Positions 10,783-23,199 of a stretch of DNA of 41,341 nt are shown here, in pieces. A program made the translations under genes and the position numbers. Location of the stretch: positions 1-41,341 of the forward strand of contig JBDHDE010000021.1 in assembly GCA_039591655.1 (NCBI GenBank), read 5' to 3'. The stretch's first letter is position 1; every line of letters begins with the position of its first letter. Source of the DNA: Gemmatimonadota bacterium. Lineage in GTDB: Bacteria; Gemmatimonadota; Gemmatimonadetes; Gemmatimonadales; GWC2-71-9. The notes under the pieces were generated by a model that was not told the DNA's origin, did not search any database, and saw only the letters and a program-made list of their open reading frames with translations.

Positions 10783-11256
10783 TTGAGCCGTAGTCTGAAC
10801 AAGGTGATGTTGATCGGAAACCTGGGGGCCGACCCGGAGGTCCGCAGCACTGCCAGCGGGACACGGGTGGCCACGCTGTCAGTGGCTACCAGCCGGTCCT
10901 GGACCAACCAGGCCGGCGAGCGTCAGGAGAAGACGGAGTGGCACCGAGTGGTGCTGTGGAACAACCGGAACCGCGGGATGGCCGACATCGCCGAGAAGTA
11001 CCTGAAGAAGGGCGACCGGATCTATATCGAGGGACGGATCGAGTACCGCACCTGGGAGGATCGCGAAGGCAACACGCGGTACTCGACCGAGATCAACGCC
11101 CGCGAGATGCTCATGCTGTCGCCGCGAGGTGGGGGGATGGACGCAGACGTGCCGGCGCGGGCTCCCGCGCAGCCGGCCGTCGCGGATGGGCAGTCGGAGT
11201 CGTACAACGACTTCCCGGAGGCGCTTGATGAGGAAGACGACGATCTTCCGTTCTAG
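10783..11256 (+). CDS. ssb: Single-stranded DNA-binding protein
   Basis: TTG start after a GGAGG SD; SLNKVMLIGNLGADPE, EKTEWHRVV, acidic tail DDDLPF. Confidence 0.97.
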   Translation: MSRSLNKVMLIGNLGADPEVRSTASGTRVATLSVATSRSWTNQAGERQEKTEWHRVVLWNNRNRGMADIAEKYLKKGDRIYIEGRIEYRTWEDREGNTRYSTEINAREMLMLSPRGGGMDADVPARAPAQPAVADGQSESYNDFPEALDEEDDDLPF

Positions 11257-12433
11257 TTCGCTCGTGGTACTGTGCGCCGCCGTGGCGTCTGCGGGCGCCA
11301 CGGCGCAGGAGCCGGACACCCTGCAGCTTCCCCAGCGTCCCGACGTGCACATCGTCGTGGCAGGCGAGACGCTGTGGGATCTGGCACAGCGGTACCTCGA
11401 CGACCCGTTCCTGTGGCCGGAGATCTACCGACTCAATACCCTGGTGGTGGAGGATCCGCACTGGATCTTCCCGGGGGAGGAGCTCCGGCTCGGGCCGCTG
11501 GATACCACGATGGTCGGCGAGACCGTGGTGGTGGGACAGCCGGTGGTGGGCGATCCCGACGTGGACGTGAGTCCTCAAGTGGAGCAGGCGGTCCTGCCGG
11601 ACCAGCCGGTGGAGGATGTCCTCGTTCCCGACATGCCGCCGCCCGGTGCGCCGCCACCGCCGCCGCCTACGGAGACGGCGCCCACGGTGTTCGCCCGGAA
11701 GGACTACGGCGCGGGCGCCATCGCGAGCCTACGCTCTCCGGGATTCTGGTACCGGCCCATCAGGCTCGGCGAGTTCTACGCTGCCGGGTTCCTCACCGAG
11801 GGACAGGACCTTCCCTGGGGCAAGGTGCTGCGGGCCGTGGGCAAGCCCACGCTGAGTTCCCTGTCGGCGACGTCCTCCACCCTGATTTACGGCGAGGTTG
11901 CCATCGAGGCGCCCCGCGACGCGATGTACCAGCTGGGCGACTCGCTGCTCATGGCGAAGCTCACTCGGGATGTGCCCGGCTGGGGTAAGATCGTCCATCC
12001 CACCGGCATCGCGGTGGTCACGCAGGTGACCGATGACGGCGGCCGGGCCCAGATCGTCCAGCAGTTTGACCGCGTCTCCGACGGCCAGGTGGCGATTCCC
12101 CTGGAGCCGTTCAGGGACCCGGGAATGGTGGTGCCGGTGCCCCTGAATAATGGCCTGATGGGTGCCATCGTCGAGATCCGAGATCCGCGCGTCATTCCGG
12201 GGCAGCAGGATATCCTGTTCATCGATCGTGGACGCGAGGACGGCGTGGCGCTGGGTGACGTCTTCACGGTGCTGCGACCCGGTCAGCGGGAAGGGATCGC
12301 CCCGGACACCGTGGGTTACATGCAGATCGTGCACACCCGCGACCAGTCCTCGTCCGGACTGCTCATTATCATTAACGATCTGGGTATCGGGGTGGGCGCC
12401 CCCGTGCAGTTGTTTGCCAAGATGCCCACTTGA
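11228..12433 (+). CDS. Exported LysM peptidoglycan-binding protein (TsaP-like architecture)
   Basis: Signal peptide ending ATA|Q; LysM HIVVAGETLWDLAQRYLDDPFLWPEIY...DPHWIFPGEEL; Pro-rich linker; C-terminal IDRGREDGVALGD beta domain. Overlaps ssb by 29 nt. Confidence 0.85.
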   Translation: MRKTTIFRSSSLVVLCAAVASAGATAQEPDTLQLPQRPDVHIVVAGETLWDLAQRYLDDPFLWPEIYRLNTLVVEDPHWIFPGEELRLGPLDTTMVGETVVVGQPVVGDPDVDVSPQVEQAVLPDQPVEDVLVPDMPPPGAPPPPPPTETAPTVFARKDYGAGAIASLRSPGFWYRPIRLGEFYAAGFLTEGQDLPWGKVLRAVGKPTLSSLSATSSTLIYGEVAIEAPRDAMYQLGDSLLMAKLTRDVPGWGKIVHPTGIAVVTQVTDDGGRAQIVQQFDRVSDGQVAIPLEPFRDPGMVVPVPLNNGLMGAIVEIRDPRVIPGQQDILFIDRGREDGVALGDVFTVLRPGQREGIAPDTVGYMQIVHTRDQSSSGLLIIINDLGIGVGAPVQLFAKMPT

Positions 12434-12634: not shown

Positions 12635-13585
12635 ATGACGGAGCGGGTGCTGGTGACGGGAGGTGCGGGGTTCATCGGGTCACACGTGGCCGAGCGCTAC
12701 CTGGCAGAGGGGTTCGAGGTCACGGTACTGGACAACCTCTCCAGCGGTCGACGCGAGAACGTGCCAGCCGGAGCGACGTTCGTCGAGGCCGATGTGGGCT
12801 CCCCCGAGGCGCGTGACCTCATCGCCCAAGGCGGATTCACCGTGCTCAACCACCACGCCGCGCAGATGGACGTACGCGCCTCGGTGAGCGATCCGGCGTT
12901 CGACGCTCGCACGAACATCCTGGGACTGCTGAACCTCCTGGAGGGAGGACGGGCGGGCGCCCTGAGGCGGGTGGTGTTCGCCTCGTCCGGCGGCGTGGTG
13001 TACGGCGAGAGCGAGTGGCTCCCCCATGCCGAGACCGCACCCAAGCTCCCCGTCTCGCCCTACGGCGTCAGCAAGCTCACCTCGGAGTACTACCTCGCTG
13101 CGTATGCCCAGCTGTATCCGCTTCACGTGGTCGCGCTGCGCTACGCCAACGTGTTCGGCCCCCGGCAGAACCCCCACGGAGAGGCGGGTGTGGTGGCTAT
13201 CTTTGGGAGTCGGGTGCATCGGGGGGAGTCCCTCACCATCTTTGGGGACGGCCGGCAGACGCGGGACTACGTGTACGTCGACGATGTGGTGGACGCGAAC
13301 CTGCGCGCCACCGGCTGGAGCCCCACGCCGGTTGGGACGATCGATGACCTGGCCTTCAACGTCGGCACCGCAACGGAGACGAGCGTTAGCGAGCTTGCGG
13401 AGACGCTGCTCGACGCCTGCGGCGTGCGGGTGCCCGTGGAGCATGCCCCGGCCCGCCCCGGCGAGCTGGCGCGGAGCGCGGTGAGCGTGGAGAAGGCCCA
13501 GCGGCTGTGGAGCTGGCAGCCGCACGTCACACTGGCCGAGGGGCTCAAACGCACCTACGAGTGGATTGCGGAGGAAGCGGCATGA
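12635..13585 (+). CDS. NAD-dependent epimerase/dehydratase (UDP-glucose 4-epimerase-like)
   Basis: VTGGAGFIGSH, HHAAQMDVR, SSGG, YGVSK (YxxxK), LRYANVFGPRQ, QTRDYVYV. Confidence 0.92.
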   Translation: MTERVLVTGGAGFIGSHVAERYLAEGFEVTVLDNLSSGRRENVPAGATFVEADVGSPEARDLIAQGGFTVLNHHAAQMDVRASVSDPAFDARTNILGLLNLLEGGRAGALRRVVFASSGGVVYGESEWLPHAETAPKLPVSPYGVSKLTSEYYLAAYAQLYPLHVVALRYANVFGPRQNPHGEAGVVAIFGSRVHRGESLTIFGDGRQTRDYVYVDDVVDANLRATGWSPTPVGTIDDLAFNVGTATETSVSELAETLLDACGVRVPVEHAPARPGELARSAVSVEKAQRLWSWQPHVTLAEGLKRTYEWIAEEAA

Positions 13586-14295
13586 CGCTGCAGGTGGGAG
13601 GCGCGCTCCCCACGACCGCATGGGAGCTGGTTACCACGTCGAGTGTCGCCATCAAGGTGGTGCTCCTCGTCCTGGTGGCCTTCTCCCTCGTCTGCTGGTT
13701 TCTCATCGGCCTCAAGTGGGTGCAGTTCCGGCGGGTGCGCCGCCAGGGCGACAAGTTCTTCGACGCGCTGGAACGGACCACACGGCTGGAAGACGCGTAT
13801 CATACGGTGATGAAGCTGCCGCCGTCGCCCTACGGCCGGCTGCTGCGGGAGGGCGTGAACTTCTTCTCCGAGCTGCGTCCCGGGGCGCTGAAGCAGCGGG
13901 GAAGCCAGCAGGTGGAGGCGTTGCGGCCCACGCAGCTCGAGGTGCTCCGCATGGTACTGGCCAAGGAGGTGAGCGCCGAGCGCGACCTCATGGCGCGGTT
14001 CATTCCCTGGCTGGCGACAATCGGCTCGGTGAGCCCCCTGTTGGGCCTCCTCGGAACCGTGCTGGGCGTGATGGATGCGTTCATCGGCATTGCCGCAGGG
14101 GGATCCGGCAACATCTCGGCCATCGCGCCGGGTGTGGCCGAGGCGCTGGTCACCACGGTGCTGGGCCTCGCGGTCGCGATCCCGGCGGTGATGGCCTACA
14201 ACCTGTTCGCGAGTCGCCTGGGCGTGTTCGCCGGCGAGCTCGAGGGGTTCGCGCACGAGATCGTGGGGACCATGGCCCGGGAAGGGAGGGTGTGA
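13582..14295 (+). CDS. tolQ: MotA/TolQ/ExbB proton channel protein (TolQ)
   Basis: LATIGSVSPLLGLLGTVLG, IAPGVAEALVTT..GLAVAIPA; ATGA coupling; tol-pal context. Confidence 0.9.
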   Translation: MTLQVGGALPTTAWELVTTSSVAIKVVLLVLVAFSLVCWFLIGLKWVQFRRVRRQGDKFFDALERTTRLEDAYHTVMKLPPSPYGRLLREGVNFFSELRPGALKQRGSQQVEALRPTQLEVLRMVLAKEVSAERDLMARFIPWLATIGSVSPLLGLLGTVLGVMDAFIGIAAGGSGNISAIAPGVAEALVTTVLGLAVAIPAVMAYNLFASRLGVFAGELEGFAHEIVGTMAREGRV

Positions 14296-14298
14296 GCC

Positions 14299-14721
14299 GT
14301 GGCGGACACCGGACTCCGGGGTCACGGCGAGCTCCCCGTGATGGCGGACATCAACGTCACGTCGCTGGTCGACGTGGCGTTCGTGCTGCTCATCATCTTC
14401 ATGATCACCGCCCCAATCATGCAGGGCGGGGTGGACGTGCAGCTGCCGCGGGCTGAGGCCCGCCCGCTGCAACCCAGGGAGGGACTGGTCGTGTCCATAG
14501 ACCGGCAGGGACGCATCTTCGTGGACGAGACGGCCCTGTCGTTCGAGGATTTCCGCGCAGCATTCCCCGCCATGGTCACCGCGCGCCAGCCCAGCGGCGT
14601 CTATCTCCGCGCCGACACCCGGGTGGACTACGGACAGGTCGTGCGAGTGCTCGCGGCGATGCGGGCAGCGGGGGTGGGCGACGTGGGCCTGGTGGCCGAA
14701 CCGGAGCGGATAACGCGATGA
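14299..14721 (+). CDS. tolR: TolR/ExbD family protein
   Basis: INVTSLVDVAFVLLIIFMITAP, VYLRAD..VDYG.VV. Confidence 0.9.
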   Translation: MADTGLRGHGELPVMADINVTSLVDVAFVLLIIFMITAPIMQGGVDVQLPRAEARPLQPREGLVVSIDRQGRIFVDETALSFEDFRAAFPAMVTARQPSGVYLRADTRVDYGQVVRVLAAMRAAGVGDVGLVAEPERITR

Positions 14722-15422
14722 GGAGGGGACCCCGCAGACCGCTGCGGCGGGCGCCCGAGGCCCGCGGGACGAGCTTCGCGTTCTCGCTCACCGTGGCGCT
14801 GCACGTGGTGGCTTTTGGGGCGGTGTGGTCGGCTCCCACGCTGGTCCGCCACGTGGCGCCGCCGGTGTACACGGTGGAGCTCGTGGCCGCGCCGCGGACG
14901 CAGCCAGAGCAGCGCCGCGCGCCCGAGGCGGTGGAGCGGCCGGCGGAGCGTCCGGCGCCGGTGAGCGACCGGCGGCCGCGCCGCAGCACGGTTGCCGAGA
15001 CGCCGCCCCCCCCGGAGCAGCAGGCGGAGCGGGAGCCGGCGCCGCGCACCACGCCGGAGGTGGAGTTGGCCCCTGACGTCGAGCCCTCCACCGGGAGCGA
15101 TCCGGCCACCGTCAAGACCAGCGGCGTGGAGTTCCCCTACCCGGAGTACCTGCGGAACATCGTGGCCCAGGTGTACCGCCGCTGGCAGCGCCCGCCGGGC
15201 GACGTGTCGCTCCGCGCCGAGGTGCTGTTCTTCGTGCACCGGGACGGCTCCATCTCCAACTTCCAGTTCGTGCTGCGCTCCGGGAGCTTCGGGTTCGACC
15301 TCGAGGCGCAGGGGGCCATTGAAGCGGCGGCCAACGCCGACGCGTTCGGTCCGCTGCCGGTGGGCTACGCCGCAGACGTGTTGCCGGTGAGCTTCTTCTT
15401 CGATCCTACGACGACGCGATGA
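14718..15422 (+). CDS. tolA: TolA/TonB-like energy transducer
   Basis: N-terminal TM with SxxxxxxH (SLTVALH), Pro/Glu linker, TonB_2-like C-domain (FPYPEYL..I...W, SGS.GFD, FGPLP); lies between tolR and tolB. Confidence 0.8.
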   Translation: MRRGPRRPLRRAPEARGTSFAFSLTVALHVVAFGAVWSAPTLVRHVAPPVYTVELVAAPRTQPEQRRAPEAVERPAERPAPVSDRRPRRSTVAETPPPPEQQAEREPAPRTTPEVELAPDVEPSTGSDPATVKTSGVEFPYPEYLRNIVAQVYRRWQRPPGDVSLRAEVLFFVHRDGSISNFQFVLRSGSFGFDLEAQGAIEAAANADAFGPLPVGYAADVLPVSFFFDPTTTR

Positions 15423-16933
15423 CTCATCGCTCGCGGGAGGGGCCTACCTTCGCGAACTGCAGTTCGCCAGACTTCCGGGGATTCCCGACGTCCCTCGCAA
15501 ACGGTCTGCTTCCCTGCTCAGGCCATCCTGCGCAACGCGCTGCACTGACGTGCGCTCCGGCAGGCCCCTCCCGCTCGCTCAGCCCTCTTCTGGCGTTCGC
15601 CGCCCTCCTTGCCCTCTCGGTCGCCCCGCTGGCAGCCCAGGAGACGCCCATCGAGCAAGGCGTGCGCATCGGCATCACCTACACGCCGGGGTTGCGGCCC
15701 GGCATGCTCGTGCTGGGAGGCGAGCGCACCGTGGTGCTGGACTCGGCTCGCGCCATCCTGCGGCGCGATCTGGAGCTGAGCGACCGCTTCGAGATGATCA
15801 CCCTACCCGGCGGCGACAGCCTGCTGCTCGGCCTGACGGGGGTGGGGCCCGAGGCGGAGCAGGGAGGCGCCGGAGGGGAGGCGTTCATCAACTACTCCCT
15901 GTACGCTGCTCTGGGGGCCGAGTACGCAGTGGGGTTGCTACCGGGGGCCGATTCGGCGAGCGCCGACGTAACAGTGTACGACGTGCGGGGGGAGACCGCC
16001 CGCCGGAGCATCGCCCTGCGGCTCAAGCCCCTGGACCATCCCGATTTCCGCATGACGGTGCACCGGGCGGCCGACGAAGTCCTGCGAGCGGCCGCGGGTG
16101 AGCCGGGGTCCGCCGCCACGCGGCTGCTGTTCATTCAGCGCGGCCGGCTGTACCGCATCGACGCGGACGGAGCCAATCTCTCGGCCGTCTCGCCCCGCAG
16201 TGTGACCGCATTCTCGCCGGCCTGGGACCCGTCGGCGAGGCAGGTGGTGTACAGCGAGCTCTCCGGTGGGTGGGGGCGCCTGGTCGTGGCCGACCCGGAA
16301 GCGGACGGTGCCCGGCCCGTCTCCCCGACCTCGCGGTTGCTGAACTACGCCGCCGCGTTCTCGCCCGATGGGACCCTGCTGGCGTTTACCCGCAGCGGGA
16401 ACGACGGCACCGATGTCTACCGCTATAACCTCGCACAGGACTGTTGCTTAGAGCGCTTGACGGTCGGGAGATTTTCGGATAACCTATCACCCACGTTCAG
16501 TCCGGACGGACGGCAGATCGCGTTCGTCTCTACGAGGGCCGGGCTGCCGCAGATCTACGTGATGGCGGCGGACGGGACGGGGCAAGAGCTGTTCGCCCCC
16601 TTCGACTACGGCGTCACCGGGAGTTCGCAGGCGCCGGAATGGTCACCCGACGGCACCCGCATCGCGTTCCACCGCGATGTAATGGGGAGCCCCCAGGTCT
16701 TCATCATGGACGCGCGGTCGCGGGCCGTGCGACAGCTGACCAGTGCCGGGCGGAACGAAGACCCAACCTGGGCGTCCGACAGTCGGCATATTGCCTTCAT
16801 CTCCAGCCGGACCGGCCGACGCCAGGTGTGGGTCATTGACATCGAGACCGGCAGGGTGCGCCAGTTGACGACGGTGGGGGATGCCCGACTGCCGGCCTGG
16901 TCACCACGAATTCCGGAGCCTAGTAACCCATAA
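15419..16933 (+). CDS. tolB: Tol-Pal beta-propeller protein TolB, with a 48-aa palindromic insertion in its signal peptide
   Basis: TolB N-domain (ILRRDLELSDRFE) and PD40 repeats (SPAWDP, FSPDG, PTFSPDG, PEWSPDG, PTWASD, PAWSP); followed by pal. Confidence 0.92.
   Translation: MTHRSREGPTFANCSSPDFRGFPTSLANGLLPCSGHPAQRAALTCAPAGPSRSLSPLLAFAALLALSVAPLAAQETPIEQGVRIGITYTPGLRPGMLVLGGERTVVLDSARAILRRDLELSDRFEMITLPGGDSLLLGLTGVGPEAEQGGAGGEAFINYSLYAALGAEYAVGLLPGADSASADVTVYDVRGETARRSIALRLKPLDHPDFRMTVHRAADEVLRAAAGEPGSAATRLLFIQRGRLYRIDADGANLSAVSPRSVTAFSPAWDPSARQVVYSELSGGWGRLVVADPEADGARPVSPTSRLLNYAAAFSPDGTLLAFTRSGNDGTDVYRYNLAQDCCLERLTVGRFSDNLSPTFSPDGRQIAFVSTRAGLPQIYVMAADGTGQELFAPFDYGVTGSSQAPEWSPDGTRIAFHRDVMGSPQVFIMDARSRAVRQLTSAGRNEDPTWASDSRHIAFISSRTGRRQVWVIDIETGRVRQLTTVGDARLPAWSPRIPEPSNP
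15428..15578. mobile_element. Small palindromic MITE/REP-like insertion, in frame within tolB
   Basis: 13-bp perfect terminal IR GCGGGAGGGGCCT (15433-15445) / AGGCCCCTCCCGC (15562-15574); direct repeat CGCTCGC at 15428 and 15572 (144 bp apart); internal 16-bp palindrome GCGAACTGCAGTTCGC (15452-15467). Confidence 0.7.
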
Positions 16934-16946
16934 GACTGGAGCTCAC

Positions 16947-17576
16947 ATGAGACTCAAGTTCACTCTGACTCTGGGCCTTGCGGTAATGGTGGCGGCGGCT
17001 GCGTGCGGTGGCGGGCAGCCCGAGATGGCGCCGGAGCCCGACGCAGACTCGATCGCGGCCGAGCAGGCGCGGCGCGATTCCATCGCTGCAGAGCAGGCCC
17101 TCCGCGACTCCATCGAGCGCGCCCGTCGCCTCGAGGAGGAGCGCATCCGCCGGGAGCGCGAGGAAGCGACCCGTCGTGAGCGTGAGATCACGGATGCGGT
17201 AGCCGCGATGATCGCCGCGGTCATCAACTTCGACTTCGACAAGTCGAACATCCGTCCGGGCATGGACACCGAGGTGCTGGAGCAGAAGCTCGCCGTTCTC
17301 CAGGCCAACCCGGCGCTGATGATCGAGATCACGGGGCACTGTGACGAGCGCGGCTCCGACGAGTACAACATGGCGCTCGGCATGCGGCGCGCGCTCTCGG
17401 CCAAGCGGTGGCTCACCGACCGGGGCATCGATGAGGTTCGGCTCGCGGTGCGCTCGATGGGTGAGGAGCAGCCGGTCGACCCGGGCCACAACGAGGATGC
17501 CTGGGCGCAGAACCGGCGGAATGAGTTCGCAATCTCAGGTGGTGGCGACAAGCTGGTACAGCCATCCGGTATGTAA
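16947..17576 (+). CDS. pal: Peptidoglycan-associated lipoprotein (OmpA-like domain)
   Basis: Lipobox AAAC; INFDFDKS, GHCDERGSDEYNMALG.RRA, SMGEEQP, NRRNEF. Confidence 0.93.
   Translation: MRLKFTLTLGLAVMVAAAACGGGQPEMAPEPDADSIAAEQARRDSIAAEQALRDSIERARRLEEERIRREREEATRREREITDAVAAMIAAVINFDFDKSNIRPGMDTEVLEQKLAVLQANPALMIEITGHCDERGSDEYNMALGMRRALSAKRWLTDRGIDEVRLAVRSMGEEQPVDPGHNEDAWAQNRRNEFAISGGGDKLVQPSGM
17046..17114 (+). repeat. 30-bp tandem repeat encoding DSIAAEQARR-like units in the Pal linker
   Basis: DSI codons start at 17046, 17076 and 17106 (30-nt period). Confidence 0.7.
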
Positions 17577-18346
17577 CACAGCTCGGCCTCACCGCGGCGA
17601 CGGCCGTCGCCCTGGGCGCCTGCGCGCTCAAGGGCGACGTGCGTCGCGTTGAGGATCAGGTTGCAGAGCTCAAAGCGGAGACAGCCCGCGCCGACTCGGC
17701 GCGGGCTGTCTTGCTCGACCAGGTGCTGCTGTTCCAGCAGCGGCTGCTGGATTCCCTGCACGTGCTACAGCGCCGGGTCAGCATGTTCCAGGGTGATGTC
17801 CGCAGCGACATGACCGATGTGCAGCGGCAGCTCGTGCAGATACAGGAGCTCGCCGGGCAGAGCCAGCAGCGTCTCTCCGAGCTGCGGGGGCAGCTGGACC
17901 AGCGGCTACGGCAGAACGTGGTGCCCGGTGTCCCCGCCACGGGCGACACCGGCAGGGCCGCAGCCGGGGCGGCGGACATCACCGCGCAGGAGCTGTACAA
18001 CCTCTCGCTGCAGCAGCTGCGGCGGGGGAGTCCGGTGACGGCGCGGGCGGGCTTCAGCAAGCTATTGACCGACCACCCCACCCACCTGCTGGCGGCGGAC
18101 GCCCAGTTCTTCATCGGAGAGACCTGGGAGGAGACCGACTCGGACTCCGCGGCGGCGGCATACGAGCTCGTGATCCGCCACCATCCGGACTCGCGCCATG
18201 CCCCGACCGCCCTCTACCGCCTCGGACTGCTCGCCGAGCGGCGGGGAGACCAGCGTGCAGCTGAGGTGTACTACACGCGGGTCATCGCCGGGTACCCCCG
18301 TTCCGAGGAAGCCCAACTGGCGCGAACCAAGCTCGGCAATCCTTAA
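17564..18346 (+). CDS. cpoB: Tol-Pal-associated TPR/coiled-coil lipoprotein CpoB (YbgF); start codon uncertain
   Basis: Coiled coil plus C-terminal TPRs (LAADAQFFIGE, APTALYRLG, YPRSEEA); follows pal. An in-frame lipoprotein signal (LGAC, Cys at 17621) lies upstream of the first canonical start (GTG 17639); ATC at 17564 is a tentative start. Confidence 0.85.
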   Translation: MRYVTQLGLTAATAVALGACALKGDVRRVEDQVAELKAETARADSARAVLLDQVLLFQQRLLDSLHVLQRRVSMFQGDVRSDMTDVQRQLVQIQELAGQSQQRLSELRGQLDQRLRQNVVPGVPATGDTGRAAAGAADITAQELYNLSLQQLRRGSPVTARAGFSKLLTDHPTHLLAADAQFFIGETWEETDSDSAAAAYELVIRHHPDSRHAPTALYRLGLLAERRGDQRAAEVYYTRVIAGYPRSEEAQLARTKLGNP

Positions 18347-18379: not shown

Positions 18380-21300
18380 ATGAAGCAGGCGAAGACTTCC
18401 GCGAGCGAGATGCCCTTCTTGGACCACCTCGAAGAGCTGAGGTGGCGCATTCTGTGGAGTCTCGTGGCCCTGCTCGTGGGGACGGCGATCGGGTTCTTCC
18501 TGGTCCAGCAGTACAACGTGCTGGAGCTGCTCAAGGAGCCCATCGCCCCGTATCTGCCGGACGGGAAGCTGATCATCATCCGGCCGGCGGACGCGTTCCT
18601 CATCACGCTCAAGCTGGCCATCGTGATCGGGGCGGTGCTGGCGTCGCCGATCATCTTCGCCCAGGTCTGGCGGTTCCTCTCGCCGGCGCTGTACAAGCAC
18701 GAGAAGCGGTACATCGTTCCCGCCTTGATGGCGGGCCTGGGGCTGTTCCTGGCCGGCGTGCTCATGGCGTACGTCTTGGTGCTGCCGGCGGTCTTCCGCA
18801 TCCTGTACGGTTTTCAGTTCGGCTTCCTCGAGTGGATGATCACCGCCGACGCGTACTTCGGGTTCGCGACGCAGCTCATCCTGGCATTCGGTCTCATGTT
18901 CCAGCTCCCCCTGGTCATGGTGCTGCTGTCGGCGCTCGACCTGGTGAGGCCGCGGACATTCGCCAGGCACCGCCCCATTGCACTGGTGTTCGGCGCCGTC
19001 CTGGCCGCGCTGCTGACGCCGCCGGACGTGGTGTCGATGATGATGATGATGGCGCCGATCCTGTTGCTCTACGAGGCGGGGATCATCGTGGCGCGCCTGC
19101 TGCGCAGGCGCCAGGCCGGGAGAACCATCGGCGGCGGCGCGATCGTGCTGGCCCTCCTCGGGGTGCCGGATGCGGCCCTGGCGCAACTGGAGCGTCCGCC
19201 CAAGCGGGGGGATCAGGATACGACCCGCGTCACTCAGGATTCGCTGGCGCTGCCGATCGACACGGCGGCCGCGAGGGAGCTGGGCCTCCCCACCGGACCG
19301 TCCCGCTCGTTTCCGTCGCTGGACTCGATCATGCGGGAGCTGATGACCCGGGAGGGCTACCGGGTCACGCGCTACGCCGGCGACAGCATCACGCTGTTCG
19401 GCGAGACCCAGGAAATCGTGCTGGAGGGATCCGCCATTGTAGAGCGGGAAGGGGCCACGTTGGAGGCGCAGACCGTCCGCTTTCAGGAGGCCGACTGCCG
19501 GCTACAGGCGGCGGGCGATCCCGCGCTGTTCGACCAGGGGACGGTGATGGTGGGGGAGGGAATGCGTTACGACACGTGCGAGCGCATCGGTACGGTGGAA
19601 AGCGCCCTCACCAGCTTCCGACAGTCCGGTGTCACGTGGTACCTGCGGGGACGCGGCATCGAGGTCGACTCGGGCTCCACCCGGCTGTACGGAGCCGCGA
19701 ACGACGTGACGAGCTGCGATCTCCCCACGCCCCACTACCACTTCGCGGCGGGCGAGATCAAGTGGGTCACGAACACCATCATGGTGGCGCGTCCGGCGGT
19801 GCTGTACGTGCAGGACGTCCCGATTCTCTGGCTGCCGTTCATCTTCCAGGACATGCGGCCCGGCCGCCGCAGCGGGTTGCTGGTGCCGCGCTTCGGGCTG
19901 AGCGACCTGGTGCGGCCCTCCTCCGGGTTCCAGCGCAACGTGTCGAACATCGGGTTCTACGTCGCGGCGAGCGACTACCTCGACTTCCAGTTCTCGCTGG
20001 ACTGGTTCTCCGGGAACTACATCGGGCTCAACGGCCAGATGCGCTACCGCTGGCTCAGTCAGTTTATGGCCGGCGGTCTCTCGGTCTCCCGCATCTGGGA
20101 GGATGGGGTGGACACCCTTCCCGGGGATCGCTCGCTGCGGCTGCAATGGAGTCACCAGCAGAACTTCAGCCAGCGAACCCGCCTCACCGCCAGTGTCGAC
20201 TTCGCGACGAAGACCGACGTGGTACAGCGCAATGCCGTGGATCCCTTCGTCCAGACCGCGACGCTCACGAGCCGCATCAACTTCAACAAGCAGTTTTCGT
20301 GGGCGACGTTGTCCCTCGGTGGCAACCGGACGCAGGACCTGAGCAACGGGACGGTCACGCAGACGCTGCCCACCATCACCCTCACGCCGTCGCCCATCAA
20401 CCTGGCGAGCAGCGTGACCTGGTCCCCCAGCTTCTCGCTCACCAACACCTCGGTATCCGGTCAGGGGCAGGGCGAGGTGCTCCCGCTGCCGGGGGGAGGC
20501 CTCGACACGGTGAAGGCGAGCCGGCGCACGACTGATTTCAGGCTCGGCACGCCGCTCAGGATCGGGCGGTGGAACTGGTCCAACGACGTGTCGATCTCCT
20601 CGTTTCGCAGTACCGGGCCACCCTTGCCCGTCCTGCTGCTCGATCCGGACAACCCCGCGGACACCGTCACCCGATTCTACAGTGAGGACTTCCAGACGGG
20701 GATCGATTGGAGCACGGGGATCAACCTGCCGCTGCTGTTTCCCTCGAGCTGGAAGCTGCAGCCCCGGCTGGGGGTGCGGAACACCACCGGCGGCCCGTTC
20801 TGGCTGCGCAACCGCAACACCGGCGGAGCCTTCGTGAGTCAGGGCAAGCGCCTCTCGCTGAGCGCCGGTCTCACGCCGACGGTGTTCGGGTTCTTCCCCG
20901 GGTTCGGTCCCTACTCCCGCATGCGGCACGCCATCTCGCCGATCTTCAACTGGGAGTACGCGCCCTCGGCGGAGGTCCCCGAGGACTACGCCCGGGCCCT
21001 CGACCCCACGGGGCAGAACCCCAGCCGCGTGAGCCCCGCCGTGCACCGGGTCAACCTGGGGCTGTCCCAGAGCTTCGAGGCCAAGCTCGCGCCGCGGGAC
21101 GACGACACCACCGGCGCTCAGCCGCCCCGCAAGGTCAAGCTGCTGAGCTGGCAGACCTCGGCCGTGTCCTACGATTTCGAGCAGGCCAAAGAGGAAGGGC
21201 GCAACGGATGGGCCACGGACCTGCTCAGCAACCAGTTCACCAGCGAGCTGCTACGGGGCTTCTCCCTCTCACTCACCCACGATCTGTGGGATGGTCCGGT

Positions 21301-21883
21301 GGGGTTCGACGGGACGCCGTTCGACCCCTTCCTCACGTCGCTCTCGGCACGGTTCAGCATCTCGGGCAACACCTTCCAGCGCCTCTTCGCGCTGTTCCGG
21401 GGTGGCGGCGGGCCACCGCCGGAGGAAGGCGGCCTGGAGGAGATCGGCCCCGAGGACCCCATGCAACCGCCGGGTTCGAGCTTGGGGCCCTCGACGCGCC
21501 TGGACCGCAACTTCTTCACGATGCCCACGAACACCGCGCGGGCCCGCGAGTTCAGGGCGACGTTCAACTACGACCTGCAGCGCACCCGCCCTCAGGAGGA
21601 CCCCGAGGGAAACGAGATCGACACGCCCGCCAACAAGGTGCTGGGGTTCTCGGTGCAGTTCTCGCCCAGCGAGCACTGGAACGTCAGCTGGAACACCCAG
21701 TACAACTTCACGACCGGCGAGTTCGACCAGCAGGTGCTGCGGCTCGACCGAGATCTCCATCGTTGGCGCGTGACGTTCGGTTTCATGCGGGCGCCCAACG
21801 GCAACGTGGCGTTCAACTTCTTCATCAGCCTCACCGACCAGCCGGAGATCCGCTTCCAGTACGACCAGCGGACGGTGAAGTAG
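18380..21883 (+). CDS. tatC: TatC fused to an LptD-like (LPS-assembly/OstA-type) outer-membrane protein
   Basis: aa 1 to ~240 is TatC (MPFLDHLEELRWR, WRFLSPALY..EKR, FQLP, LTPPD, LLYE). aa ~241-268 is signal-like (RRRQ...AIVLALLG..AALA|Q). The rest carries LptD-type TSCDLPTPHYHF, PAVLYVQDVPILWLPF, RRSGLL.P.FG, GFY.A.SDY.D and a C-terminal RDLHRW beta-barrel pattern. No internal stop. Confidence 0.88.
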   Translation: MKQAKTSASEMPFLDHLEELRWRILWSLVALLVGTAIGFFLVQQYNVLELLKEPIAPYLPDGKLIIIRPADAFLITLKLAIVIGAVLASPIIFAQVWRFLSPALYKHEKRYIVPALMAGLGLFLAGVLMAYVLVLPAVFRILYGFQFGFLEWMITADAYFGFATQLILAFGLMFQLPLVMVLLSALDLVRPRTFARHRPIALVFGAVLAALLTPPDVVSMMMMMAPILLLYEAGIIVARLLRRRQAGRTIGGGAIVLALLGVPDAALAQLERPPKRGDQDTTRVTQDSLALPIDTAAARELGLPTGPSRSFPSLDSIMRELMTREGYRVTRYAGDSITLFGETQEIVLEGSAIVEREGATLEAQTVRFQEADCRLQAAGDPALFDQGTVMVGEGMRYDTCERIGTVESALTSFRQSGVTWYLRGRGIEVDSGSTRLYGAANDVTSCDLPTPHYHFAAGEIKWVTNTIMVARPAVLYVQDVPILWLPFIFQDMRPGRRSGLLVPRFGLSDLVRPSSGFQRNVSNIGFYVAASDYLDFQFSLDWFSGNYIGLNGQMRYRWLSQFMAGGLSVSRIWEDGVDTLPGDRSLRLQWSHQQNFSQRTRLTASVDFATKTDVVQRNAVDPFVQTATLTSRINFNKQFSWATLSLGGNRTQDLSNGTVTQTLPTITLTPSPINLASSVTWSPSFSLTNTSVSGQGQGEVLPLPGGGLDTVKASRRTTDFRLGTPLRIGRWNWSNDVSISSFRSTGPPLPVLLLDPDNPADTVTRFYSEDFQTGIDWSTGINLPLLFPSSWKLQPRLGVRNTTGGPFWLRNRNTGGAFVSQGKRLSLSAGLTPTVFGFFPGFGPYSRMRHAISPIFNWEYAPSAEVPEDYARALDPTGQNPSRVSPAVHRVNLGLSQSFEAKLAPRDDDTTGAQPPRKVKLLSWQTSAVSYDFEQAKEEGRNGWATDLLSNQFTSELLRGFSLSLTHDLWDGPVGFDGTPFDPFLTSLSARFSISGNTFQRLFALFRGGGGPPPEEGGLEEIGPEDPMQPPGSSLGPSTRLDRNFFTMPTNTARAREFRATFNYDLQRTRPQEDPEGNEIDTPANKVLGFSVQFSPSEHWNVSWNTQYNFTTGEFDQQVLRLDRDLHRWRVTFGFMRAPNGNVAFNFFISLTDQPEIRFQYDQRTVK

Positions 21884-21902
21884 CCCGGCCAGCGGGAGGA
21901 AG

Positions 21903-22001
21903 TGTCCTCTCGCGAGGACATTGCGCCAGCCCCGCCATTCACAGTAAACCATTGACGGACAAGTAGTTATGTCGTCCAGCCGGGGCGGCACGCTCCCTGC
22001 T
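21903..22001 (+). promoter_or_regulatory. Sigma54-type promoter module: palindromic UAS, IHF-like site, -24/-12 box
   Basis: TGTCCTC-tcgc-GAGGACA (21903-21920); TAA-N4-TTG-N5-CAA-N4-TTA (21945-21969); cGGCACGctcccTGCt with GG-N10-GC spacing (21986-22001). Confidence 0.6.
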
Positions 22002-22041: not shown

Positions 22042-23199
22042 ATGCGGCGCATCATTGTCGGGCTGGCCCTGGTGCCGCTGGCGCTGGCGTGCGACAGCAC
22101 GACGGCGCCCGTGGGCGGAGTGCTGCCGGCACCGGCCAACGTGTTCTACGAGCTCGAGCCCAGCGGCGACCCCGACGCGCCCATGGGTATGCTGCTGGCT
22201 TGGGATCCCATCGTGAGCGATGTCCTCGGCGCCTACCGCGTGTACTCGCGGCCGACGTTCGACGGCGTCTTCGGCCTGCGGGGCGAGACCACGTCGATCA
22301 CCTTCCACGACAACGGCATCCCCGACCTCGAGTATTTCGTGGTGGCGGTGGACGTGGGCGGCCTGGAGGGCGTGCCCAGCGAGAGCGTGATCATCGACGA
22401 GCGGTTGCGGCTCGAGTCGCCGGCGTGGATCAGCAGCATCAGTCTCGACGAGGCGATCCACCTGGCGTGGTCGGACAACCCGTTCCTCAACGAGCCCGCC
22501 GGGTTCATGCAGTACCGCGTCTACAGCGCGTCGTTCTCGCTGGACGACCCCGTATGCGGCGAGTGGGGCCTCGAGGGCACCACGATCGCGCCGGAGTTCA
22601 TCGTGTCCGCGCTGCCCAACGGCGCGCCCCGCTGCTTTGGTATCTCGGCCGAGAGCATCGAGGGCTGGGAGAGCCTGTGGTCGCCCATCAGGGCGGATAC
22701 GCCGCGCCCCGACGCGCGGAACGTGGTGATATACGCCCGGCAGTTCGACGCGTCCCGTAGCGGGTTCCGGTTCTGGCTGGATTCCAACGGTGACGGGCAG
22801 GCCAGCCGCACCGAGCTGGGGCTGATTCTGGACGGCACGAGGCTCGACCTCGACTTCTACATCACGCGGGATGGGAGCAACCGGTTCTTCTTCCAGCCGG
22901 TGCTGCTCACCACCCGTATGCTGGACACGGGTCCCGTCGCTGACCTGACGGAGATCGACTTCGCCCCGGAGATCGGGTACTCGGGTGCACAGCACGAGGC
23001 CAAGGTGGGCTTCGGGTACGTGTTCGAGATGGACGGCGGTGACGGATTCCTCCGCTACGGGGGGATCCGGGTGAGCCACGTCGGCGTCGACTACATGATC
23101 TTCGACTGGAGCTACCAGACCGATCCGGGGAACCCGGAGCTGTCCATCGGCGCCGGCATCTTCACCGGCGGCGGTGGTGGGGTGATCATAGAGCGCTAA
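22042..23199 (+). CDS. Uncharacterised lipoprotein with two fibronectin-III-like repeats
   Basis: GGAGG SD; lipobox LALAC; two repeats of LAW...YRVYS...G.T...V.A...G.E; DSNGDG Ca-loop-like motif. Confidence 0.75.
   Translation: MRRIIVGLALVPLALACDSTTAPVGGVLPAPANVFYELEPSGDPDAPMGMLLAWDPIVSDVLGAYRVYSRPTFDGVFGLRGETTSITFHDNGIPDLEYFVVAVDVGGLEGVPSESVIIDERLRLESPAWISSISLDEAIHLAWSDNPFLNEPAGFMQYRVYSASFSLDDPVCGEWGLEGTTIAPEFIVSALPNGAPRCFGISAESIEGWESLWSPIRADTPRPDARNVVIYARQFDASRSGFRFWLDSNGDGQASRTELGLILDGTRLDLDFYITRDGSNRFFFQPVLLTTRMLDTGPVADLTEIDFAPEIGYSGAQHEAKVGFGYVFEMDGGDGFLRYGGIRVSHVGVDYMIFDWSYQTDPGNPELSIGAGIFTGGGGGVIIER

Follow-up and report, generated by a model that had tools for sequence, protein, structure and literature searches.

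The tatC::lptD Locus

The window, i.e., the whole stretch of DNA analysed here, comprises 41,341 nucleotides (nt) of contig JBDHDE010000021.1 from a Gemmatimonadota bacterium (GCA_039591655.1), a metagenome-type assembly of 149 contigs; the completeness of this source genome (G000) is 95%. TatC is an export protein of the inner membrane, and LptD inserts lipopolysaccharide in the outer membrane. One gene of the window encodes both, a complete TatC continuing in the same frame into a full LptD, with a signal-peptide-like linker in between (Table 1). An earlier note on this DNA had described a single uninterrupted open reading frame (ORF) of 1167 amino acids (aa), its first 240 aa or so a complete TatC and its tail a member of the LptD/OstA family. 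It had also proposed to inspect reads at the junction, to ask whether the genome holds any other tatC or lptD, and to survey relatives for the fusion and for a conserved AxA-type site. The single frame and both assignments stood, and the outcome of the checks is given below.

Table 1. Coordinates of the fusion, its parts, neighbouring genes and unfused loci of the same family.
Feature	Position	Strand	Support or remark
tatC::lptD fusion ORF, 1167 aa	18380..21883	+	stop-free single frame; junction-spanning contigs without indel
Complete TatC part with six helices (residues 1-241)	18380..19102	+	PF00902, search of own genome, 4b4a_A alignment, model helices
Linker resembling a signal peptide (residues 242-268), with a basic n-region, a hydrophobic core (254-262) and a c-region that contains Pro263 and A266-L267-A268	19103..19183	+	
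Gln269, predicted first residue of mature LptD	19184..19186	+	nearly invariant alignment column
LptD moiety, 899 aa	19184..21883	+	PF19838, AlphaFold model, Foldseek; PF04453 without match
Purine run and in-frame GTG 19088 (Val237, inside TatC helix 6)	19073..19090	+	not conserved as start
tolQ, tolR, tolA/TonB-like, tolB, pal, cpoB-like	13507..18346	+	profile matches; NCBIfam Tol-Pal equivalogs below cut-off
tatA, only TatA/B/E-family gene found in the genome	31844..32089	+	Pfam and genome search
Stand-alone tatC of family f1	L075, L077, L079, L080, L081, L087, L090		
cpoB-lptD of family f1 without TatC	L174-L178		

Logan contigs of two runs cross the junction without an indel. The contig of run X1 spans positions 18421-21950 with 9 substitutions and 0 gaps, that of run X2 positions 18421-19284 with 4 substitutions and 0 gaps; both runs belong to one study, and one of them is possibly the source sample. 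Among the best 120 of 1318 matches of a homologue search, 119 possess both Pfam domains, and the remaining one, 725 aa long, contains LptD alone and matches the query with 100% identity. The named relatives come from Gemmatimonadota/Gemmatimonadales assemblies. As the named entries among the matches listed mostly say only "TatC", the LptD part is hidden in the annotations of the family. Within the source genome the fusion is the only TatC match and holds the only LptD_2 matches. A second tatC or lptD copy that would render the fusion dispensable was not found in this 95% complete genome.

An AlphaFold model of the full chain, built on a 38-row alignment (mean predicted local distance difference test, pLDDT, 69.7; predicted template modelling score, pTM, 0.48), shows the TatC helices at residues 13-244, a short helix at 253-259, and then a short-strand domain and a long-strand barrel. 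Residues 245-298 are of low confidence (pLDDT <50). When the model was submitted to Foldseek, ranks 1-15 were all LptD structures (E 1e-24 to 2e-16, root-mean-square deviation 10-13 Å), and TatC structures first appeared at rank 16.

Both Moieties are Ordinary Members of Their Families

The Pfam TatC model (PF00902) is covered completely (1-208/208) by residues 15-226 with 209.5 bits (E 6e-62), and TIGR00945 is passed with 196.7 bits (cut-off 132.7). Residues 1-234 align end to end with a solved TatC (PDB 4b4a_A). Conserved features of TatC are the N-terminal HLxELR motif, the loop between transmembrane helices 2 and 3, and PD motifs. The six helices are present in the model, and H16, E18, E19, F99, P102, E108, P214, and D216 are invariant in the 38-sequence alignment, so that the moiety has both the helices and the conserved motifs of the family. 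It differs from other TatC proteins by a seventh hydrophobic segment and the 899-aa tail that the fusion adds. A term search of a survey of bacterial TatC proteins (PMC3827258) found neither "fusion" nor "fused". No tatB was found in the 95% complete source genome, and a crude scan of this genome revealed two Tat-signal-like N-termini.

In the tail, the best stretch for Pfam LptD_2 (PF19838) covers residues 469-673 (E 3e-40; 138.8 bits against a cut-off of 22.5). PF04453 has no match in the fusion or elsewhere in the source genome, and the proteobacterial LptD equivalogs PRK04423 and PRK03761 match far below their cut-offs. On the model, a low-confidence spacer reaches to about residue 298 and is followed by a short-strand N-domain (about 330-500) and a long-strand barrel (about 520-1165). 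This is the LptD fold of an N-terminal jellyroll and a large C-terminal barrel, although the strand count of the modelled barrel is unreliable. The solved LptDs of E. coli and Pseudomonas (LptDE) share the short-strand N-terminal domain and the long-strand barrel. However, the moiety is only 10-12% identical to them, its three Cys are all in the N-domain with none near the C-terminus, and its N-terminus is not free when it is synthesized.

Further genes for the Lpt pathway present in the source genome are LptE, LptF/G, LptB, and LptC (G000:C2:28168-28740), plus LpxC. LptC was found in 36/39 family genomes. An LptA-like ORF (L204, G000:C2:26897-28399) lies between lptC and lptB; its match is weak, just under the Pfam cut-off, and with an open frame of about 500 aa it is unusually long.

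Distribution of the Fusion in the Phylum

TatC was searched in 300 other genomes of the phylum. In the family of the window (f1, Gemmatimonadales), 122/124 genomes gave TatC matches, reduced to 121 after one 30-residue fragment had been dropped. The survey of relatives suggested in the earlier note bore out the fusion: a fused frame is present in 111 of these 121 genomes, of which 92 were checked on the DNA, G007 was assigned by its linker at a contig end, and 18, including the unpublished G182 and G057, were assigned only by an open frame of at least 1100 residues; G182 and G057 enter into nothing but this count. The ten unfused f1 genomes consist of four with adjacent split genes and six with tatC elsewhere. 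Outside f1, 4/172 genomes with a TatC match have a long frame, and all four (G047, G228, G091, and G180) were confirmed as fusions. Among 64 non-f1 loci, which were chosen and not drawn at random, 56 have separate adjacent tatC and lptD genes, four are fused and four show no lptD, two of the latter sitting at short contig ends.

At L152 (G054), a break near residue 42 divides the TatC match between two frames, the remainder being fused to LptD; this represents a frameshift or an assembly error. G045 possesses a fused and a stand-alone tatC copy and is a possible intermediate.

The Linker Resembles an Internal Signal Peptide

Linker statistics refer to 94 of 95 DNA-examined fused loci; G238, in which the anchor motif is missing, was left out and fits by eye. 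Scored by a hand-made rule, the linker shows a basic n-region, a hydrophobic core, a helix-breaker, and small residues at -3 and -1, i.e., the parts of a signal peptide, but placed internally rather than at a free chain N-terminus. All 94 linkers have at least two R/K in the n-region and their first Gln 4-11 residues after the hydrophobic core, and in 91 of them the c-region contains G or P. Position -1 of this Gln is A in 80, G in 9, S in 2, V in 2, and L in 1 linkers. A/G/S at -1 is found in 91/94 cases, compared to 22% at the 4188 other Gln residues of the LptD parts, and position -3 is A/L/V in 88/94 compared to a background of 21%. A small residue followed by Gln is the form in which the AxA-type site looked for in relatives is kept. 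The distance from core to Gln is tight (13-20 residues, standard deviation 1.4), while the n-region is variable (7-43 residues, standard deviation 6.2). Between the linker Gln and the conserved N-domain lies a spacer of 26-60 residues. A Tat signal was rejected, as the twin-arginine consensus RRx[FL][hydrophobic] occurs in 0/94 linkers, and a lipoprotein signal for signal peptidase II was rejected with a lipobox-like string in 1/94 and Gln at +1.

The source genome encodes three signal peptidase I (SPase I) genes. Among 231 crude candidates for N-terminal signals in this genome, 118 carry small-x-small|Q, compared to a mean of 21.7 and a maximum of 31 in shuffled controls. A +1 Gln in most SPase I substrates of an organism defines the Q-rule, and the bias found here resembles it outside the Bacteroidetes, judged by predicted signals. 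The Q-rule was described for Bacteroidetes (PMC5837995), and Gemmatimonadota are not mentioned in the available part of that work. A glutaminyl cyclase of the PF05096 type has no match in the 95% complete genome, M28-type cyclases not having been searched for. Examples of the small-x-small|Gln bias within the window are tolB (15419-16933) and a LysM gene (11129-12433). A crude scan for internal signal peptides in the source genome returned 4/1414 ORFs, the fusion among them; the other three resemble common helices or, in one form or another, a usual signal at the N-terminus.

Origin, Gains and Reversions

In other Gemmatimonadota, separate tatC and lptD genes share with the fusion the order cpoB-tatC-lptD, the domains, and the small-x-small|Gln signal. 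They differ in that tatC ends with a stop and lptD has its own start, the two mostly combined in an NTGA overlap; the fusion has neither. The tatC stop overlaps the lptD frame in this way in 43/60 split pairs (GTGA 28, ATGA 6, CTGA 6, and TTGA 3). Free LptD opens with a basic-hydrophobic signal; Gln follows within 16 residues of the core in 49/60 cases, with Ala at -1 in 37. Because tatC and lptD are adjacent elsewhere in the phylum, usually with the four-base overlap, the linker is best understood as the retained signal peptide of LptD. The fusion would have originated by a frame-merging indel at the overlapping tatC stop and lptD start, and would be tolerated since cleavage restores both products.

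The six CTGA overlaps (L006, L010, L015, L029, L065, and L070) are in the -1 frame, and in several of these loci CTG may serve as the lptD start through translational coupling. In the independent f4 fusion of G180 (L037), the linker DNA contains a short tandem repeat, a possible trace of frame merging.

A FastTree phylogeny was computed from 129 LptD moieties, comprising all loci of at least 600 residues; its root is roughly placed, and directions of change were read by parsimony. Unfused f1 loci nest inside fused clades with starred support. They represent three re-splits (G112; G048 and G001; G148) and three events in which the TatC part was lost (G066, G172 and G227; G033; G025). The f1 reversions keep the linker segment as the N-terminal signal of LptD. 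In the five genomes that lost the TatC part, LptD directly follows cpoB and its N-terminal signal ends with a small residue and Gln. Seven stand-alone f1 tatC copies fall within a 34-row clade together with TatC of family f2 (99*), which suggests that they are acquired replacements. Fusions outside f1 have split loci as their sisters, which raises the number of origins by at least three. When an 18-row tree was used to test whether all fusions go back to one origin, this was rejected (approximately unbiased test, p-AU 2e-58); the test was not blind because the 18 rows were picked after the larger tree had been seen.

Read in this way, the sampled tree implies about four separate fusions and about six reversions. 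A near-neutral and reversible fusion is thus the likelier interpretation: it is easily gained and lost while the mature N-terminus stays the same, as would suit a fusion rendered nearly invisible to the cell by cleavage. The earlier note had inferred that the fusion fixes TatC:LptD synthesis at 1:1. This found no support, given genes that overlapped ancestrally, about four gains and about six reversions, although retention in 111/121 f1 genomes leaves room for a selected 1:1 device.

Proposed Processing and Competing Explanations

The membrane topology of TatC and LptD and the steps of their pathways are established knowledge. Against this background we consider it highly probable that SPase I cuts the fusion after Ala268, yielding an inner-membrane TatC and, after export of the tail by Sec, a normal outer-membrane LptD. 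Sec would insert the six TatC helices, with R242-R244 staying cytoplasmic. The core at 254-262 would act as a seventh, N-in/C-out signal segment that starts export of the 899-residue tail, and SPase I would cut A-L-A|Q at the periplasmic face. Released LptD would proceed to BAM and LptE as usual, and TatC would remain a 268-residue protein with a spent signal, barring further trimming by a different protease. The earlier note had proposed that SPase I cuts an internal Sec signal. Comparison supports it well: the linker signature, present in 91/94 fusions, equals the genome's own signal peptides, which argues for SPase I cleavage by comparison and is not proof of it.

In E. coli, engineered SPase I sites placed after internal helices reportedly served to release the passenger from polytopic fusions (PMC5449189). 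By analogy, SPase I action after an internal helix is supported by these constructs, in which a periplasmic passenger is freed from a site behind such a helix. They are artificial and their helix is Tat-inserted, whereas the present linker is natural and lacks a twin-arginine motif.

Several observations weigh against this processing scheme. The signals were scored by a hand-made rule and not by SignalP, and since the genomes are kin, the 91/94 do not represent 94 independent trials. The best 19-residue hydropathy of the linkers has a median of 1.74, compared to 1.97 for TatC helix 6, so that the linker could hold as a membrane anchor. Some in-frame ATG/GTG/TTG occurs in 78/94 linkers, and motifs similar to a Shine-Dalgarno (SD) sequence precede 25/160 of these candidate codons as opposed to 60/1501 in the TatC body. 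Moreover, an SD-like motif precedes the start of tatC itself in no more than 14/93 cases; the group rarely uses SD sequences, and their lack is therefore weak evidence against an internal start.

A further reading takes cleavage as a control point: SPase I would gate both the assembly of the Tat translocase and the release of LptD, perhaps via a transient or partly stable TatC-LptD tether, and the seventh helix would alter a TatB-less TatAC translocase. If true, this would explain why the fusion is kept in 111/121 family genomes and why it arose repeatedly in other families. We regard this reading as tentative and rather unlikely.

It appears improbable that LptD is mainly made from an internal start, GTG 19088 or a similar codon, with the open frame bridging two separately expressed products. 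A purine run does lie 7-15 nt upstream of GTG 19088, the alternative start named in the earlier note. This start lost its support in the comparison: the codon is GTG in only 9/94 fusions, and GAGGCGGGG at 19073-19081 forms the codons of E232-A233-G234, i.e., the purine run is a Glu-Ala-Gly stretch. In 16/94 fusions there is no ATG/GTG/TTG at all from helix 6 to the core, the share of GTG among Val codons is 0.54 in the linker compared to 0.52 in the TatC body, and 16 of the 25 SD-like motifs share bases with the Glu codon in a conserved LYE motif. No conserved internal start was found across the 94 linkers, not a single position being kept. Besides, any ribosome that makes TatC, of which the genome has no other copy that was found, must continue into LptD because there is no stop. 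Judged from these codon patterns, internal initiation may contribute to the output of some genomes, yet it cannot be what holds for the family in general.

With a probability as low as that of the internal start, the chain might stay uncut or be cut in part, helix 7 serving as anchor and the disordered spacer tethering LptD to TatC across the periplasm. The near-helix hydropathy of the linker would suit an anchor, and the length (26-60 residues) and low model confidence (residues 245-298) of the spacer may allow the geometry. A tether, however, gives no reason for small residues at -1/-3 and a Gln at fixed distance across proteins that are about 55% identical, and the reverted genomes manage without any tether. 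As a substitute for a missing LptC it was rejected, lptC being present; with LptC and an LptA-like gene in the source genome and LptC in nearly all family genomes searched, no part of the bridge needs replacing.

Still less probable than these two is separation of the chain by another protease, such as one of the rhomboid or RseP type, or cleavage elsewhere in the chain. Intramembrane proteases take marginal helices with helix-breakers as substrates, and the segment is such a helix; its signature, however, is the same as that of the genome's SPase I-type sites and of free LptD. Finally, an assembly or sequencing artefact that joined two genes, conceivable in a metagenome-type assembly of 149 contigs, has a probability close to nil and was rejected on the indel-free contigs of two runs over the junction and on the fused frames of the family, most of them checked on the DNA.

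Precedent and Implications

To our knowledge, processed polyproteins are rare in bacteria. By analogy, the closest precedent of the TatC-LptD fusion would be FbcH of Bradyrhizobium japonicum, a cytochrome b-c1 polyprotein reportedly presented by Thony-Meyer, James and Hennecke in 1991, which is said to give two proteins after processing at an internal signal-like segment. As is reported for FbcH, a single bacterial gene here encodes a polytopic protein of the inner membrane and, behind it, a signal-like segment within the chain, and the present ORF contains two complete proteins with this signal-like linker between them. FbcH reportedly joins subunits of one inner-membrane complex, whereas here Tat and Lpt, and thus two membranes, are concerned and cleavage is only predicted. 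In titles and the openings of abstracts, the literature yielded no description of a TatC-LptD fusion, supplements and most subscription papers being outside this scope.

In most of a widespread family, a single encoded chain combines proteins of two envelope machines that are unrelated and belong to different membranes. If the chain is processed as proposed, a seventh helix can serve Sec as the starting point for the export of a 900-residue barrel precursor, and SPase I cuts at this place in nature. This would also point to a route towards polyproteins, as an overlapping gene pair whose downstream member carries a signal peptide would be a single indel away from a tolerated fusion. The repeated gains and reversions across the phylum serve as natural controls.

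Genomic Neighbourhood

Domain matches confirmed the tol-pal-cpoB genes that the earlier note had placed before the fusion; they lie upstream of it and on its strand. The cpoB stop is separated from the ATG of the fusion by 33 nt, and from this spacing only, a common transcript of tol-pal and the fusion is plausible; a promoter and terminator scan gave no signal above chance level. Directly after the fusion follows a 385-aa ORF (22042-23199) whose N-terminus resembles a lipobox and which matched neither Pfam nor NCBIfam models. The tatA gene was found about 10 kb downstream, where the earlier note had placed it.

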